This document shows, piece after piece, positions 29,960 through 47,900 of a DNA stretch of 64,000 bases. The translations under genes were made by a program, and so were the position numbers. The notes under the pieces were generated by a model. It was not told the origin of the DNA, ran no database searches, and saw only the letters and a program-made list of their open reading frames with translations. The stretch lies in the NCBI GenBank assembly GCA_039621445.1, contig CP154954.1:8620634-8684633 (forward strand), in the 5' to 3' direction. The DNA is from Euglena gracilis (taxonomy: Eukaryota). Positions within the stretch are counted from its first letter, which is position 1; every line of letters begins with the position of its first letter.

Positions 29960-32900
29960 TTCTGGAGTGTGCTTCGCCCGCGTCCTCCCGGCCCGCCTCC
30001 CAGCCCTCCACCGGCGCACACAAGTGTGGCCGTGGCGGCGGCCTCACCGCGGAGGAGCAGGCGTCCCTCCAGGCCCAGTTCAAGGCGCTGGACCACAACC
30101 AGGGATTTTTTTAAGTTTGGACCCCGGGGGGGGTAGGGTGGGTGGGTCCGGCCGAGCCCCCCCCCCCCCCCCCCCCCCCCCGGGGGTCCCCCCCCGGAGG
30201 GGGGTGGGATATACTTTTCGGCGCTGCAGGCGCCGAAAAAATTCTATTTTTAGCATTTTTCGCGATTTTTCGGCCATTTTTTTTTTGTGGGTCCCCCGGG
30301 ACCCCCTCCCCCTCCCGGGGGGGGCCCCCAAGGAGGTGGGTGGGTGGGGGGGGCCCCCCCCCCCCCCCGGTCTTAAAAAAAACCCCTGACCACAACGGGG
30401 ACGGCGTGCTCAGCGAGAAGGAGTTCACAGACCCCATCTCGTACCTCCTCGGCGAACGCGTCGCCCTTCTCCTGTTCCGGGCGTTTGGCTGGGCCGCCCC
30501 GCAGACCGCGAATCCCTGTAGAGAGCGTGGGTATTGGAAGTGGTTTGAAGGTTCGTTGATTTGTTGGGCAATGTTCGATACTCATTCGATGCTCATTCAT
30601 TCTCATTCACAGTATGGTATATTTATACACATATATTTGAGTATTTATACACATATACAGTGTGCCAAGTAAATTTTCAGACCTTGAAAAAAATTGAAAA
30701 AATGATCCCCCCCCACACTCCTCAAAACCATCCTCAAACGCCTCCCAGAGTTGAGAGCACTGGTGGAGGAGTGCTTTGACAGGTGATTGAGACTGCTTAG
30801 AGCTTGATGGTATTGCAGAACAGCAGAAATACAATTTGGCACCAAGAGTTTTGCTGTAAAATTTGCCATTGCACAGGTTTGCACAAACAAAACGAGGACA
30901 TCGAAATGGATCGCTTTTGGTGAATCTCAATGGACTTCTCACAGACAAAGTTTTGGTGAAACTGGTAACCCCATCCACTTAGCAGTCCAAGAAAACTCAA
31001 TTTGAGAGCACAGAAGAAAAAAATGACAGGGGAGCCCATTTCAAGCTGTCAACCCCCGGATAGGCAATTGTACACGGAGCTTGATTAAAGCTGGATTGAA
31101 GTGAATGCGGTTTGCAAAGCTGTCTTTTCCCAAAAGGTCTTTGGTGGTGCCATCTGGCGCGAAGCAGTCACAATCGCCTGTCAAAACACTCCTCCACCAG
31201 TGCTCTCAACTCTGGGAGGCGATTGAGGATGGTATTGTGGAGTGTGGGGTGCCATCAATTTTTTTGATTTTTTCAGGGTCTGAAAATTTACTTGGCACTT
31301 GGGTCTGAAAATTTACTTTGCACGCTGTACATACACACATACCTACCTACCTACCTACCTACCTACCTACCTACCTACCTACCTACCTACCTACCTACCT
31401 ACCTACCTACCTACCTACCTACCTACCTACCTACCTACCTACCTACCTACCTACCCACCTACCTACCTACCTACCTACCTACCTACCTACCTACCTACCT
31501 ACCTACCTACCTACCTACCTACCTACCTACCTACCTACCTACCTACCTACCTACCTACCTACCTACCTACCTACCTACCTACCTACCTACCTACCTACCT
31601 ACCTACCTACCTACCTACCTACCTACCTACCTACCTACCTACCTACCTACCTACCTACCTACCCACATACATACGTACGTACGTACATACATACACACAC
31701 ATACATACATACACACACATACGTAAGAAAGCAAAACAACTGGCAAATGGAAGGGTCAGCACCAAGAATAATAAAGACATTTTAAACACAACCCAATGAT
31801 TTTGACCCCTGCAAAGTGTGCACCAACCTTTTTGGCCCTGACCCTTGCAAAGTAATTTGGGTAGTCCGAAATTATTTTCGGATCCATTTAAAAAGCATAT
31901 TTAGCATCAAATTTTGTAGAGATTATTAATTGGCAGCCCCATGCAATCGGAATAGCGACTCAGTGGCATGAGGAGGTGAGTATTAATGGTGTAGAATTAG
32001 GGTAACAATTTTCGTCTAAATTTTGGCAAATTCTTATTAAGGCGTAAATTTTGGCCTAAATTTTCGCCTAAAATTTGCAATTAGTCCTAAATAATAGTTC
32101 TGCCTAAATCTTGCCTAAATTTAGTCGAAAATCGTTACCCTAAGCGTATCGTATAAACCAGGCTTCTTTTTAAGTCACCTGACCCCCCGGAGGTGCTGGG
32201 TATACCTTTTCGGAAATTTTTGAAAATTGCCTTTAACGGGCCCGATTTTGGGGGGGAGGTCCCCGCCCCCCCCCCCCCCCCCCCGGGGGGGTCCCGCGCC
32301 ACCCTGGGTGGGTGGGGGGGACCCCCCCCCGGGGGTCTTAAAAAGAAGCCTGGTATAAACAACCTCCCCCATACTACTAGGGCCGCGGGGCCCTCTGGTA
32401 TGGGGCTGCCTAATAAATTGAAAAAGAAATAATATGTTCAATGCTTCTCTTTATCGGACAGCAAAGCGGTGTGGTATCCAAACCCCCCCCAAAAATAAGA
32501 CCGGAGGTCCATTTCATGGGTCGGTTGCTGGAGAGCCTGAGGGGGGGTCTTATTCATGGGGGGGTTCCATTTTATGGATTTTTGCTGGAAAATTTTTCGA
32601 CACCCCAAATTGTCCAAAAATGCCCCCCAAAATACCAATTTTCAAAAAATTCGGTATTTCACGCCAGACAAATAGGAGAAAATATGCTGAATTGTGTGAA
32701 AACTGTCCCAAAATGGCAGATTTACCCCCCAAAATGTCCCATTTTTCAAAAATCCGGCGCTTCGCGCCAGCAGGGGGGGACCTTATTTATGGGAGGGGTC
32801 CATTTCATGCATTTTTGCTCGGACCGGCCAGGGGGGCTTATTTTTGGGGGGGGTTTAGGATGGTTTTTTGTGCTTACCACATTTGGCACAATTCTCCAGA

Positions 32901-44900: not shown

Positions 44901-47900
44901 AGACCCTCCTCGAACGTCGTTCGAGGTCGTTCCAGGAGGTTCGAACCTCCTCGAGTGTGGTTCCAGGTGGTTTGGCGCCTCGCTCGGGTCCCCCCCATGT
45001 TTTTAACCCTAGTAAAATATGTTTTTTTTCAAAACGCGTGGAAAATTTCCTACTGCGGGGTACCAGCTACCCCAAAGAGTCGCCCAACTAGGGTTAATAC
45101 ACATGGGGGGACCCTTGCTCGGCCGAGTAAGGAGAGACGGGGGGGGATTTGAAATGGTCGAATTACCAACCCAATCACATAACGAGAGGGAATAGGTCTC
45201 GCCTGCTTGAGTGGTCGTTTCTGAAAAGATTCCCTGAAACCCAAAAACAAAAAAGAACCCACCCATAATTTGTCGAGGACGTTGGTGTTGAAAGCTGTAT
45301 GCATGTACGTAGGAGGAGGGTCGAGATGTCGTTCGAGGTCGTTCGCGGAGGTTCGAGGTCCCTCCTCGAACGTCGTTCGAGGTCGTTCGAGGAGGTTCGA
45401 GACCCTCCTCGAACGCTGTTCGAGGTCGTTCCAGGAGGTTCGAGACCCTCCTCGAATGTCGTTCGAGGTCGTTCGAGGAGGGTCCTCAAACGTTTTTAAG
45501 CCCCCCCTTGAAGGGGGGTGCTTAAAAACGTTCGAGGAGGTTCGAGTTAGAACGTTCGGGCTCGAACCTCCTCCTACTGTAACCCCCCTGGTCCTCCCCC
45601 CCCTTGGGTCTTTAAGAAAACCTGCCAACCTGACTGTGTGCGTTGCTTGTGGTTGGTGTGTGTGTTGTATGTGTTGTTGTCTGTGTGTCAAGTGTTTTAC
45701 TGATGACGACGTTTTGGTGAGAAATGCCTCTCCATGTCTCGTTATTGCCCCCCCCCCCATTCAGTGGCGCGGACCCCAGCGCAGATGTGGTGGCGGTGTA
45801 CGACGTGAAGGGGTCCCACGCGGGGCGCTCCACCCCGCTGGAGAAGCGCAAGGGCCCCCTGACGGCCCTCAAGGACCTCGACCAGGGTTCGATACACCTG
45901 CTGCCCCCCTTGTCCAACGTCTGGGCTTGCCTAGCGACCACCCCCCTCCCCCGGTCAGATGCGGACCTGGACCAACCCCTAAGGGAATACCAAGGACCCC
46001 CACAGAAGGCCAAGAATTTCCTTCCGGTGCTTCGGGCCTTTCACTTCGAGCAATTTTGACAATTTTCGCTTCCCAAAAGTGCTCCAAATGGCATTTTGGG
46101 TGGATTTTTGGGGGGGGTAAATATTTTTTTCGGCCCATTGTGGCTTTGCCCAAGTGCATGTGCCCCCCTCCCTTAACCACTGAGGGGGTCTGGACTCCCC
46201 CACTGCCCTCATATCGAACCCAGACCTCGATGTGCCCCGACCACTACCCCTGGCAGACCCAGCAGAATTCCAGCTCCTCGTGGAGAGCCGCGACACTTTT
46301 TTTTTGACCCCCCCAACGTTTTGCCACCCTTTCTTGGGTTTTGTCCAAGTTGAGGCTTTTCAGGTGGCTGGGTGGGCGGTCGACTGCCCCTGGGGTTGGT
46401 GTGTGGTGGGGTAGCCCAGCTTTTTTTTCATTATCTTGTGAAGTTCCGCTTGAACCACAATAAAGGTTTCGCGCGACAGATGTGGAATACGACGCCGGGT
46501 TGCTGCGATCTCTAAATATCATGGATTACTCTCAGGCCGGAGTTCAAAAAGACTGAGTGCATAAAGGCAACATTTAACGTGCTTGCGTCTCCCATTACCA
46601 TTCCCTCCACCCTTGAGAGTGTGCCTGCATTTCTCCTCCTTGTGTTTATTGGATTTCATCATGTCGATAAAAGAAATTTCAGAATAACTCCCATTGCTTT
46701 GTTTCCCAACGGATTCATTTTTTTGGTATTACATTATCTTCTCCCATGCCTCCCACCTTCTGCATGTACATCCCCCTTGCCCAATGAAACGGAGGCATGA
46801 ATTTTCTAAGGTTTAGCAGGGCATGCTTTTTGCACAAAAGGAAGGCTGTTTATGCTTTGGGAGGTAATTTGCGGGACCCACAGAGTGCGGACAAAAGTTG
46901 CAGGATACAAACATTATTATTCTCCCATGAATTTTATGTAGTTTTTGTCCCGTGTTCCCACCCACACCCTTTGGGTGGCATTCTCAAATTTGCTCACATT
47001 TTAAACAGGAAAAAATGCGATTCTGTAATATTGTCAGTTTTGGGGGATATTTTGAACCACAAAGAGCACCACCAGACATCCATTTTCACCATCCTTTGGG
47101 ATTTTTTGAGTAGCCTTTTTGCCCAAAAAATCTTCATTACAACTGACAAAAACTTCCACCATTTTCCTCCAAGTTTTGAAATTTTCCATAAAATTTTTTT
47201 TTTTTAAATCAAAAAATGTCTCATAGTATATTTTTCCGTAATATTTTCTTCCCGTCATTTTTGTCTCCCGTCATTTTTGTCCACACTGCATGTTTTCTTT
47301 GCCTGGGTTTATACCTGGTTTTTCACAAAGGCTTCTTTTCAAGAAAGTTTCAAATGCGCAGGTGGTATGGGCTGACATGGGGGGGGAGTCAGTTTCCAGG
47401 TAAGTGTTCCACCCCCCAAAATGCCCTGCCTTCAAAAAAATTTCCCGGTTTTCCAGACATAAACCCCTGGGTTGTTGTAGAACCGGGATTGGGGCTACTG
47501 TGGACAGTTGGCAGAAGACACCCCCCTGGCTGGTCAAAAAAAAGGCTGGTGAACCCGTGTCTGATTAAAATTTTTGCCCAGTGAACGGGGGGGGGGTGTC
47601 CAGACCGTGTAGTTTGTCATTATTTATCGCAATACAAATGCTCATGCACCCCATGTCCAATGAACGTCCCCCATCTGGGCCGTCGGGATCGCCACTTTAG
47701 TGTTCACTGGGCTTGGGGGGTGCTCACCAGGCACCTATAGTCAAGCCCAAAAATTTCCCCATTTTAGGCCATTTTAGGCCATTTTAGGCCATTTTAGGCC
47801 ATTTTAGGCCATTTTAGGCCATTTTAGGCCATTTTAGGCCATTTTAGGCCATTTTAGGCCATTTTGGGCCATTTTGGGCCATTTTGGGCCATTTTGGGCC

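Follow-up and report, generated by a model that had tools for sequence, protein, structure and literature searches.

Paired triplets at intron ends in a Euglena gracilis nuclear locus follow the known layout of euglenid nonconventional introns

The nonconventional introns of euglenids are described by the same model in Milanowski 2014 (PMC3935182), Milanowski 2016 (PMC4770533) and Nomura 2025 (PMC12501133). In these accounts the borders are not GT-AG, a helix starts at +4/-6, most commonly with CAG and CTG, and is flanked by spacers of 3 nt on the 5' side and 5 or 6 nt on the 3' side, and the downstream exon begins with a purine; direct repeats at the junctions are frequent and GT-AG introns occur in the same genes. 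Compensatory changes are treated in the 2016 study, and excision by an endonuclease was put forward as a hypothesis in 2014. Full-length intron circles without a lariat form have also been reported (PMC11282704, citing Guminska 2021). Mutagenesis by Nomura et al. 2025 (PMC12501133) showed that splicing is lost when a single letter of CAG or CTG is replaced; among complementary swaps at the second position, only CTG-CAG is still spliced, and the authors conclude that sequence is constrained in addition to pairing. In the same work an insertion of one nucleotide in the 3' spacer still gives a functional product, and the function of a synthetic intron is impaired once its downstream pairing is removed.

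We analysed a window of 64,000 nucleotides that is, judged by its sequence, Euglena gracilis nuclear DNA. Its exons are approximately 100% identical, in protein matches, to two EukProt E. gracilis transcripts, EG_transcript_7280 and EG_transcript_20395, an identity that makes the intron hosts euglenid nuclear genes. Gene A encodes P0001 (EG_transcript_7280, 565 aa; precomputed Pfam: EF-hand families and PF01504). It was mapped by tblastn, with exon 45763-45888 matching P0001 at 100% identity, and mate orientation in the raw RNA-seq run X24 agrees with RNA from the + strand. Its 19 mapped introns comprise 17 nonconventional and two GT-AG introns. Gene B (P0002, EG_transcript_20395) contributes nine nonconventional and one GT-AG intron as an independent sample, giving 29 introns, 26 of them nonconventional (Table 1).

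The nonconventional introns of both genes show the layout of the published description, and we find no essential difference from it. The triplets do pair close to the intron ends; since such pairing is the published hallmark of Euglena "nonconventional" introns, it confirms a known splicing code and reveals no new one. The pairing of +4..+6 with -8..-6, the compensatory changes and the downstream purine have all been published, and the interpretation is not new. CAG/CTG occurs in 12/26 nonconventional introns, and the next exon starts with a purine in 24/26 (15/17 in gene A; A8 and A10 have T), as the first-pass annotation had noted. The published code, N3-CDG…CH'G-N5-6 followed by R, is matched by 15/26, or 58% in this small sample, compared with the 61.2% strict-code fit reported for E. 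agilis. Nine of the 26 pair through triplets outside CD'G/CH'G, among them the unslidable, RNA-confirmed CAC/GTG of A6, which bears out the earlier remark that several cases fall beyond the consensus. The third-position flips seen here (CAC/GTG twice, CAT/ATG, CGC/GCG) lie outside the code as published.

Table 1. Genes, introns and MITE copies in the window (NC, nonconventional; triplets are those at the helix start and helix end; "first pass", whether the intron was listed in the first-pass annotation).
Feature	Class	Coordinates	Strand	Triplets	First pass	Details
Gene A	EF-hand + phosphatidylinositol-phosphate kinase	29103..53385	+			~20 exons
A1	NC	29163..30039	+	CAG/GTG		protein-level only; G.G mismatch at +6/-8, four further pairs behind it
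A2	NC	30097..30393	+	CAG/CTG		11 protein-equivalent positions; P0001 continuous across it
A3	NC	30487..33096	+	TGG/CCA	yes	protein-level; contains (TACC)89 array and nested MITE
A4	NC	33154..34169	+	TAG/CTG	yes	protein-level; U.G at +4/-6
A5	NC	34294..37331	+	CGG/CTG	yes	protein-level; G.U at +5/-7; contains 2.3-kb (AC)n-like array
A6	NC	37394..38804	+	CAC/GTG	yes	unslidable; RNA joint 37393>38805, 'both' = 0 in X1, X2, X21, X24; 3 bp + A.G mismatch + 4 bp
A7	NC	38922..39954	+	CAG/CTG	no	stem 7 bp; RNA joint 38921>39955, slidable by 1
A8	NC	40082..40596	+	CCG/TGG	no	3 slide positions; RNA joint 40079>40595, slidable by 2
A9	NC	40662..41610	+	CAT/ATG	yes	RNA joint 40660>41610, slidable by 1
A10	NC	41690..42523	+	CGG/CCG	as 41687-42520	unslidable; RNA joint 41689>42524, 'both' = 0 in 4/4 data sets; downstream T RNA-confirmed
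A11	NC	42594..43029	+	CAG/CTG	no	stem 4 bp; RNA joint 42593>43030 in X1, X2, X21; 0 reads in X24
A12	NC	43121..44181	+	CAG/CTG	no	4 slide positions; contains (AAC)52; RNA loose end at 43121 continues into next exon
A13	NC	44243..45778	+	CCG/CGG	no	8 slide positions; protein-level only; paired only if 3' spacer = 6 nt
A14	NC	45880..46231	+		no	11 protein-equivalent positions, 45873..45883 to 46221..46231
A15	NC	46286..46478	+	CGC/GCG	yes	protein-level only
A16	NC	46530..48224	+	CAG/CTG		contains nested MITE
A17	GT-AG	48296..50417	+			GTGTG…C-rich tract…CAG
A18	NC	50506..51992	+	CAG/CTG		stem 6 bp
A19	GT-AG	52073..53318	+			protein-threaded junction
Gene B	alpha/beta-hydrolase	925..9617	+			10 introns
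B7	GT-AG	6043-6353	+
MITE	free-standing	20985-21098	.			14/14 inverted ends CAGGGTTCGATATAAG/…CCCTG; 8-bp duplication TCCCTTGC
MITE	copy	12160-12427				8/8 duplication
MITE	copy	13226-13647				8/8 duplication
MITE	copy	29226-29544				8/8 duplication
MITE	copy, nested in A3	32159-32352				8/8 duplication
MITE	copy, nested in A16	47728-48190				8/8 duplication
MITE	copy	62914-63219				8/8 duplication
MITE	copy	51417-51620				7/8 duplication
MITE	copy	61035-61471				7/8 duplication

The junctions are demonstrated by protein threading and by RNA. P0001 was threaded through the window and every donor/acceptor pair that reproduces the protein was enumerated; the exons of gene B were mapped with P0002 and its protein-compatible junctions enumerated likewise. 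The RNA evidence came from two sets of transcriptome contigs (X1, X2) and two runs of raw RNA-seq reads (X21, X24), aligned to 37273-43650. Six joints are confirmed at nucleotide level, five in all four data sets and one in three, so that precise removal from gene A mRNA is seen in contigs and raw reads as well as in the continuous protein. The other 13/19 gene A junctions and all gene B junctions are based on protein identity alone and therefore do not distinguish between synonymous alternatives. For slidable introns the junction with maximal pairing was picked, which biases per-position pair counts upward; the null models were allowed an equal number of tries. Individual assignments with 8-11 tries (A2, A13, A14, B5, B10) are weak. 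A14, for instance, may have a mismatch at its helix start, its options in register being 45880-46228 (CAG/CAG, A.A mismatch) and 45883-46231 (GGT/ACC).

The first-pass annotation had listed seven of the 13 introns within its own range, and the triplets it gave for +4..+6 and -8..-6 are present at all seven coordinate pairs. Six of its junctions are correct: all lie within the positions allowed by the protein, and for none of the six introns does another allowed position have a paired triplet. A6 and A9 agree with RNA joints and A3, A4, A5 and A15 are supported by protein, A5 additionally by a loose end at 37331 that continues into the upstream exon in all four RNA data sets. The seventh, annotated as GGG/CCC, is off by 3 nt, since RNA joins 41689 to 42524. 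The RNA-defined A10 is still paired and fits the published consensus, and it is the sole position that yields the SGSFFFISPD of P0001. Stems had been put at about 6-12 bp; the contiguous stems of the seven, in order of position from A3 to A15, measure 6, 6, 8, 3, 13, 3 and 5 bp. The earlier observation is partly confirmed and its interpretation partly supported.

The register of pairing is fixed and the helix boundary is sharp. In the 26 nonconventional introns, 21 pair at +4..+6/-8..-6, three pair with a 6-nt 3' spacer (+4/-7) and two (A1, B9) are unpaired in either register. Decoy ends taken from inside each intron pair in 5.4 introns on average and in 13 at most over 5000 trials; for partner-shuffled ends the average is 11.1 and the maximum 19, with 21 reached by 0/20,000 shuffles. 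Gene A alone has at least three contiguous pairs from +4/-6 in 15/17 nonconventional introns, whereas decoys average 3.4 (never above 9 in 5000) and shuffled 3' partners average 7.5 (15 reached by 0/20,000). A 10x12 register scan of these 17 introns peaks at (+4,-6); pairing at +3/-5 occurs in just four, and +1..+3 and -5..-1 are largely unpaired. The letters of the paired triplets covary, as the first-pass annotation had described. Of its interpretation, the helix at a fixed register with covarying letters is supported, but the conclusion that structure, not sequence, defines the ends is too strong in view of the sequence constraint found by mutagenesis. The ruler-type cleavage that it proposed, taken strictly, fails at the 3' end: three introns have a 6-nt spacer, and the published one-nucleotide insertion there still gave a functional product.

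Several introns are linked to miniature transposons. We examined 37 CAG…CTG inverted-repeat pairs; seven are flanked by an exact 8-bp duplication and two by one that matches at 7/8, in a bimodal identity distribution, and beyond the 8-mer the flanking bases do not match. An unbiased scan returned duplication-flanked elements only with CAGG ends, low-complexity hits aside. Intron A2 consists of a MITE (30100-30388) together with a single copy of the 8-bp duplication ACCACAAC that flanks it, divided as 3 nt and 5 nt, and the ends of A14 share 12-13 nt with the free MITE at 20985-21098, a member of the same family. Across the 26 nonconventional introns, comparison of the 8-mers at the two junctions gives 92/208 matching positions (shuffle mean 69; 0/5000 reach 92). 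Because a near-intact duplication is kept in just 4/26, a transposon origin is demonstrated for no more than a few introns. The spacers, of 3 nt and 5 nt, sum to the length of the 8-bp MITE target duplication.

Taken as a whole, the locus very probably contains ordinary nonconventional introns of a euglenid nuclear gene, with the published layout, recognized at the helix end and in many cases derived from MITEs. The layout is a 5' exon, N3, a helix start that is usually CAG, a helix end that is usually CTG, N5 (sometimes N6) and a purine-first exon, with +4..+6 and -8..-6 forming the first three pairs. We infer that the excision machinery would recognize the end of this intramolecular helix, cutting the 5' strand 3 nt ahead of it and the 3' strand 5-6 nt past it, CAG/CTG being favoured but probably not obligatory. 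Many such introns may derive from MITE-like transposons whose inverted ends become the helix; the 8-bp target duplication would provide the 3 + 5 spacer nucleotides, and RNA excision would therefore restore an uninterrupted reading frame.

Excision could instead be the work of a spliceosome, either the standard one choosing its sites less strictly or a variant form, with end pairing merely juxtaposing the splice sites, a role suggested in some tunicates and considered in diplonemids. Nonconventional and GT-AG introns are indeed neighbours within the same genes, an adaptable spliceosome is favoured for diplonemids in PMC12621601, and PMC11282704 allows for "a nonconventional, additional spliceosome". 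We nevertheless consider this unlikely. GT-AG borders are absent from the nonconventional introns: a GT-AG placement is possible for only 3/29 introns, and the other 26 have no GT/C-AG option at any protein-compatible position. Those three (A17, A19, B7) have U2-type borders, starting GTGTG, GTTCG and GTGTC and ending in a C/T-rich tract and CAG, whereas these features are absent from all 26 nonconventional introns, in which the cuts keep a constant distance to a helix instead of falling at conserved dinucleotides. The circles without lariat form in the literature also speak against it; among our aligned reads we found no circles or back-joints at intron ends, and intron read depth was near zero.

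Less likely still is that the complementarity is no more than a passive fingerprint left by the inverted ends of transposons, the pairing being unselected and the machinery reading the letters CAG/CTG, the spacers and the purine. This option was raised by Milanowski 2016 (PMC4770533); it fits the observation that all free MITEs in the window begin CAGG and finish CCTG, and the published failure of single substitutions and of most complementary second-position swaps. Neutral decay, however, should give more single-sided mismatches than double changes, and 9/26 introns pair via other triplets while just 2/26 are unpaired. In addition, CAC/GTG is found twice independently (A6, B3), with A6 precisely spliced in four RNA data sets; own partners pair in 21/26 compared with 41% for the partners of other introns; and the synthetic intron of PMC12501133 is impaired without its downstream pairing. 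That the introns are artefacts of template switching at direct repeats or of mis-assembly is extremely improbable: many junctions are slidable and lie in short direct repeats, yet three of the six RNA-confirmed joints are repeat-free ('both' = 0) and come from independent studies and from raw reads with several start positions. The removed stretches, of 193-3038 nt, are rich in stops and microsatellites, and their removal gives a continuous EF-hand/PIPK protein.

Recognition of a helix end can be compared with tRNA and archaeal bulge-helix-bulge splicing, where it is likewise the RNA structure, as opposed to the sequence, that sets the cut sites, and where circular intron products are also reported (for Euglena, in the literature only). 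The classical substrate has two 3-nt bulges, which contain the cut sites, round a 4-bp helix flanked by further helices, and its cleavage leaves 2',3'-cyclic phosphate and 5'-OH ends for an RNA ligase to join. Here there is one helix, and both cuts are found beyond its open end, at distances of 3 and 5-6 nt. Exon-exon pairing shows no enrichment in any register (4/17 gene A nonconventional introns at most), so the classical bulge-helix-bulge geometry is absent; +1..+3 and -5..-1 are mostly unpaired as well. The endonuclease-ligase splicing that the first-pass annotation preferred is a putative mechanism, already hypothesized in 2014. Noncanonical introns of hemistasiid diplonemids (PMC12621601) similarly lack GT-AG and show extensive end pairing, but belong to another lineage, and are not known from that paper to have a fixed +4/-6 register or a CAG/CTG motif.

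The MITEs of the window, with CAGG[GC] ends and exact 8-bp duplications abutting short terminal inverted repeats, may be hAT-like by duplication length and terminal letters only. Duplications of 8 bp are also made by other transposon superfamilies, and in a cursory view of the window no related element with a hAT transposase was noticed. MITEs of the hAT superfamily such as Mar of Drosophila (PMC3517528) duplicate 8 bp of their target and have short inverted ends that start CAG(G/A)G. The introners of Micromonas, dinoflagellates and others (PMC11282704) are similar in that introns arise from MITE-like elements that have inverted ends and are flanked by target duplications, the element being removed together with one copy of the duplication. 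In contrast, introners are reported to be removed by the spliceosome via GT/AG from the element or the target, whereas here GT-AG plays no part and the signal seems to lie in the inverted ends.

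The larger of the two genes analyzed, gene A, was delineated with P0001 (eukprot EG_transcript_7280, 565 aa), a transcript-derived protein with the Pfam families EF-hand and PIP-kinase. P0001 is the sole match to exon 45763-45888 in a collection of 5.8 billion proteins, with 100% identity over the aligned part. Together with the match of gene B to eukprot EG_transcript_20395, it identifies the window as nuclear DNA of Euglena gracilis or of a very close strain. Gene A contains 19 introns (A1-A19), of which two (48296-50417 and 52073-53318) allow a GT-AG placement, with a C/T-rich tract ahead of CAG; the other 17 allow none and are classed as nonconventional. 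The window differs from P0001 at 29103-29111, where it reads LPC versus the MSA start of the protein, so that the 5′ end is either different or trans-spliced, and by single residues at 30082-30084 (K/R, residue 35) and in codon 48234-48236 (I/V, residue 428). Raw RNA reads contain two alleles at several exon positions (40029, 40617, 40634, 41667, 42562 and 43108).

Junctions were assessed by enumerating, for each intron, all donor/acceptor pairs that reproduce the transcript-derived protein, with one polymorphism tolerated in each of two introns. The first-pass annotation had listed seven introns (30487-33096, 33154-34169, 34294-37331, 37394-38804, 40662-41610, 41687-42520 and 46286-46478) with paired triplets at +4..+6 and -8..-6, and these triplets are present at all seven. 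Six of the listed positions are allowed by the protein, and in each of these introns no other allowed position has a paired triplet. The remaining one, 41687-42520 (GGG/CCC), is disallowed: it would yield SGSLFFISPD, whereas the transcript reads SGSFFFISPD. Only 41690-42523, 3 nt away, reproduces the transcript; the corrected intron has CGG/CCG, which keeps the pairing and fits the published consensus.

RNA evidence was drawn from two transcriptome contig sets (X1 and X2) and two raw RNA-seq runs (X21 and X24) on 37273-43650, with protein identity as the sole basis for 13 further gene A junctions and the 10 gene B junctions. Six joints were recovered in X1, X2 and X21 (37393>38805, 38921>39955, 40079>40595, 40660>41610, 41689>42524 and 42593>43030), and all except the last in X24. 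Three of the six have no sliding freedom. Among the listed introns in this region, 37394-38804 and 40662-41610 agree with the RNA, but 41687-42520 is replaced by 41690-42523. Loose RNA ends at 37331 and 43121 read into the neighbouring exons. Intron depth is near zero; no intron-circle back-joints were seen in this region, a count without evidential weight.

The pairing at the intron ends far exceeds chance. At least three contiguous pairs from +4/-6, the outermost pair of the helix inside the intron, are found at some allowed position in 15 of the 17 nonconventional introns of gene A when G-U is allowed and in 12 of 17 with Watson-Crick pairs only. Decoy ends within the same introns, granted the same number of sliding tries, gave means of 3.4 and 1.2, respectively, and none of 5000 sets attained the observed counts. 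When 3′ ends were shuffled among gene A introns, foreign partners paired in 41% of cases, versus 15/17 for the introns' own partners, and 0 of 20,000 shuffles reached 15. A 10 x 12 register scan has its maximum at (+4,-6); moving inward on the diagonal, the counts drop only gradually (12, 12, 11, 10), a pattern typical of helices starting at this position. Further outward, +3/-5 is paired in 4/17 introns and +2/-4 in 2/17, per-position counts that lean upward because the positions were chosen for pairing. A comparison of terminal duplex energy between 30-nt intron ends and random internal 30-mers was dropped; nonconventional and GT-AG introns are poorly distinguished by it (control fractions from 0.000 to 0.82), since intron interiors are rich in G+C and pair well too.

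Adding the nine nonconventional introns of gene B, an alpha/beta-hydrolase gene, gave a pooled sample of 26, of which 21 pair at +4/-6, three solely with a 6-nt 3′ spacer and two in neither register. Pooled decoys reach a mean of 5.4 and a maximum of 13; partner shuffling gives a mean of 11.1 and a maximum of 19, with 0 of 20,000 shuffles reaching 21. Within gene B, two introns have the 6-nt spacer and 7096-8208 fits no register. The first-pass annotation had put stems at about 6-12 bp, which is generous unless mismatches are admitted, as the contiguous stems of the seven listed introns measure 6, 6, 8, 3, 13, 3 and 5 bp.

The letters of the helix end are less uniform than its position. CAG/CTG occurs in 12 of the 26 introns and the CD′G/CH′G form fits 15. 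Cases outside this consensus had been claimed, and nine introns across both genes indeed pair with other triplets: TGG/CCA, TAG/CTG, CAC/GTG (twice), CCG/TGG, CAT/ATG, CCG/CGG, GGT/ACC and CGC/GCG. Of these, GGT/ACC in intron A14 (45873-46231) is doubtful, having been chosen from 11 equivalent positions. A14 shares its terminal 12-13 nt with a free element at 20985-21098 and keeps 7/8 of a duplication, and its 3′ inverted end is mutated from …CCCTG to …CCCAG. The original register, 45880-46228, has an A.A mismatch at +5/-7; the shifted register with the first intact pairs, 45883-46231, gives GGT/ACC. Both encode the identical protein through different codons (GAT or GAC), and the alternative register is at least as likely as the one with GGT/ACC. 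The next exon opens with a purine after 24 of the 26 introns, as had been observed, and with T after 40082-40596 and 41690-42523. The latter is unslidable and confirmed by RNA, which makes it a naturally occurring departure from the |R rule.

The window also contains short elements with inverted ends CAGG[GC]…TTAAG / CTTAA…[GC]CCTG, belonging to one family or several (see table). Scanning for CAG…CTG inverted ends with at least 12/14 matching positions gave 37 pairs, whose 8-nt flank identity is bimodal, with 24 at 0-3, seven at 8/8 and two at 7/8. With the letters left free, inverted ends bordered directly by exact 8-nt direct repeats were found in 14 places. Eight of these are real elements, all starting with CAGG, and the remaining hits are artefacts of microsatellites or tandem repeats. 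Beyond the 8-mers, the adjoining bases do not match. Gap controls for the duplication and inverted-end scan gave from 10 down to 2 hits, low-complexity arrays included, and were set aside as a null in favour of the bimodal distribution of flank identity. The CAGG-ended elements are MITEs with 8-bp target duplications. These duplications end in AC in seven of the ten elements, and hAT targets may be GTnnnnAC-like.

Features in the window
Feature	Coordinates	Strand	Remarks
Gene A, EF-hand/PIP-kinase	29103-53385	+	tblastn of P0001; about 20 exons, nearly all 100% identity
Gene B, alpha/beta hydrolase	925-9617	+	eukprot EG_transcript_20395; 10 introns, 9 nonconventional and 1 GT-AG
MITE-like element	12160-12427		8/8 duplication
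MITE-like element	13226-13647		8/8 duplication
MITE-like element	20985-21098		8/8 duplication
MITE-like element	29226-29544		8/8 duplication
MITE-like element	30100-30388		8/8 duplication
MITE-like element	32159-32352		8/8 duplication
MITE-like element	47728-48190		8/8 duplication
MITE-like element	62914-63219		8/8 duplication
MITE-like element	51417-51620		7/8 duplication
MITE-like element	61035-61471		7/8 duplication
Intronic array, (AC)n-like	34991-37272		about 2.3 kb
Intronic array, (TACC)89	31340-31694		
Intronic array, (AAC)52	43657-43811		
Intronic array, 10-nt unit CCATTTTGGG	47759-48000+		at least 24 copies
tRNA-Asp call	44841-44916	-	ARAGORN; intron A13
tRNA-Gly call	45331-45416	+	ARAGORN; intron A13

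Four MITE copies are nested in gene A introns (within A1, A3, A16 and A18), and one further copy is intron A2 (30097-30393) itself. Its element has the ends CAGGGATTTTTTTAAG…TTAAAAAAAACCCCTG with ACCACAAC flanking on both sides, and the intron has 11 possible placements because a 9-nt repeat flanks it. For five free MITEs, removal in silico of the element plus 8 nt left no clear reading frame in the coding context, so none of them can be called an intron. The occurrence of free CAGG-ended MITEs with exact 8-bp duplications beside introns of the same families, within 64 kb, directly supports a transposon origin, which is still called unclear in recent papers. Across all 26 introns, the two junction 8-mers agree at 92 of 208 positions, versus 69 on average after shuffling (none of 5000 shuffles reached 92), and a near-intact duplication is kept by only four.

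Between the 5′ junction and the outer end of the helix there are 3 nt, and between that end and the 3′ junction 5 nt, or in some introns 6. The helix letters change in concert, and the spacer nucleotides are for the most part unpaired. The excision machinery may dock on the helix end and cut both strands at set distances from it. An element plus one copy of its duplication is N3 + element + N5, with 3 + 5 = 8, and the 8-bp duplication offers a simple reason for spacers of 3 and 5. We tentatively suggest, at slightly less than even confidence, that nonconventional splicing acts on RNA as a 'precise excision' system matched to a single class of transposon. What is read would be the helix formed by the inverted CAGG…CCTG termini of hAT-like MITEs, and the two spacers would be the two parts of the target duplication, such that cuts at 3 + 5 would take out the element together with exactly one copy of the duplication and leave the message uninterrupted. 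The window contains fresh copies whose duplications are perfect, one of which, 30100-30388, is already in use as an intron; in older introns the geometry would persist while compensatory change alters the letters (CAC/GTG, CAT/ATG, CGC/GCG, TGG/CCA). If true, the published CD′G/CH′G letters would be sufficient, not necessary.

Other intronic features are of a different kind. Many transcriptome contigs cover the stretches 39616-40041 (A7) and 41320-41532 (A9), and their depth is very high, reaching about 13,000 at 39824 in eight contigs of X1; unusual joints connect 39357, 41284-41302 and 41472. They look like a multi-copy expressed repeat; Rfam gave no matches in the whole window, these stretches included. 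The two ARAGORN tRNA calls lie inside a 43-nt tandem/inverted repeat, have no Rfam tRNA match and are regarded as false, probably hairpin artefacts.

In their layout, the introns described here are typical nonconventional introns of euglenids. Milanowski et al. 2014 described +4,+5/-7,-6 (CA/TG) as the most conserved feature and a purine at the start of the downstream exon, and proposed an endonuclease resembling Ire1 or those that act in tRNA splicing (PMC3935182). Their 2016 report gave the most conserved positions as +4..+6 and -8..-6; among 55 introns, +5,+6/-8,-7 were always paired, CAG/CTG occurred in only 33 and compensatory changes were frequent, and the authors asked if CAG/CTG serves as a signal or represents a "fingerprint" that compensatory mutation has changed over time (PMC4770533). 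Through knock-in mutagenesis, Nomura et al. 2025 defined 5′-N3CDG-/-CH′GN5-6|R, found in 61.2% of E. agilis nonconventional introns, with 38.8% outside it (PMC12501133), and the 3/5 offsets, purine and CDG/CHG of the first-pass annotation are exactly this code. Its observation is real apart from one junction 3 nt off, its interpretation is partly right and overstated, and both were already published: layout, pairing, compensatory changes, downstream purine and endonuclease hypothesis all appeared in 2014-2025, leaving little weight as a discovery. That structure, not sequence, defines the ends agrees with the covarying letters, but sequence counts too: in the published assay single CAG or CTG changes abolish splicing, and among complementary second-position swaps only CTG-CAG worked (PMC12501133). 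Ruler-type cutting is likewise consistent with the fixed helix register, but the 3′ spacer is 6 nt in 3/26 introns, and a +1 insertion there still gave a functional product (PMC12501133).

Transposon origin and "TSD-like" repeats are also already in the literature, and in 2016 a recently gained intron was noted to have a repeat of eight nucleotides. In literature searches and in the main texts consulted, we did not find the 3 + 5 = 8 arithmetic, a hAT-like assignment or identified free-standing family members. The locus illustrates the transposon link neatly on a local scale, and it yields RNA-verified natural introns that break the 2025 letter code, chiefly the unslidable CAC/GTG intron 37394-38804. 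Such introns are test cases that could separate recognition of helix geometry by the machinery from recognition of letters.

Full-length circles of the introns, with no lariat form, are reported in reviews, which call the mechanism unresolved (PMC11282704). An exon-exon helix was found in none of the registers scanned (at most four of the 17 nonconventional introns of gene A), so the geometry differs from that of a bulge-helix-bulge substrate. The window MITEs resemble the hAT superfamily in two of its features, an 8-bp duplication length and a CAG(G/A)G start (PMC3517528).
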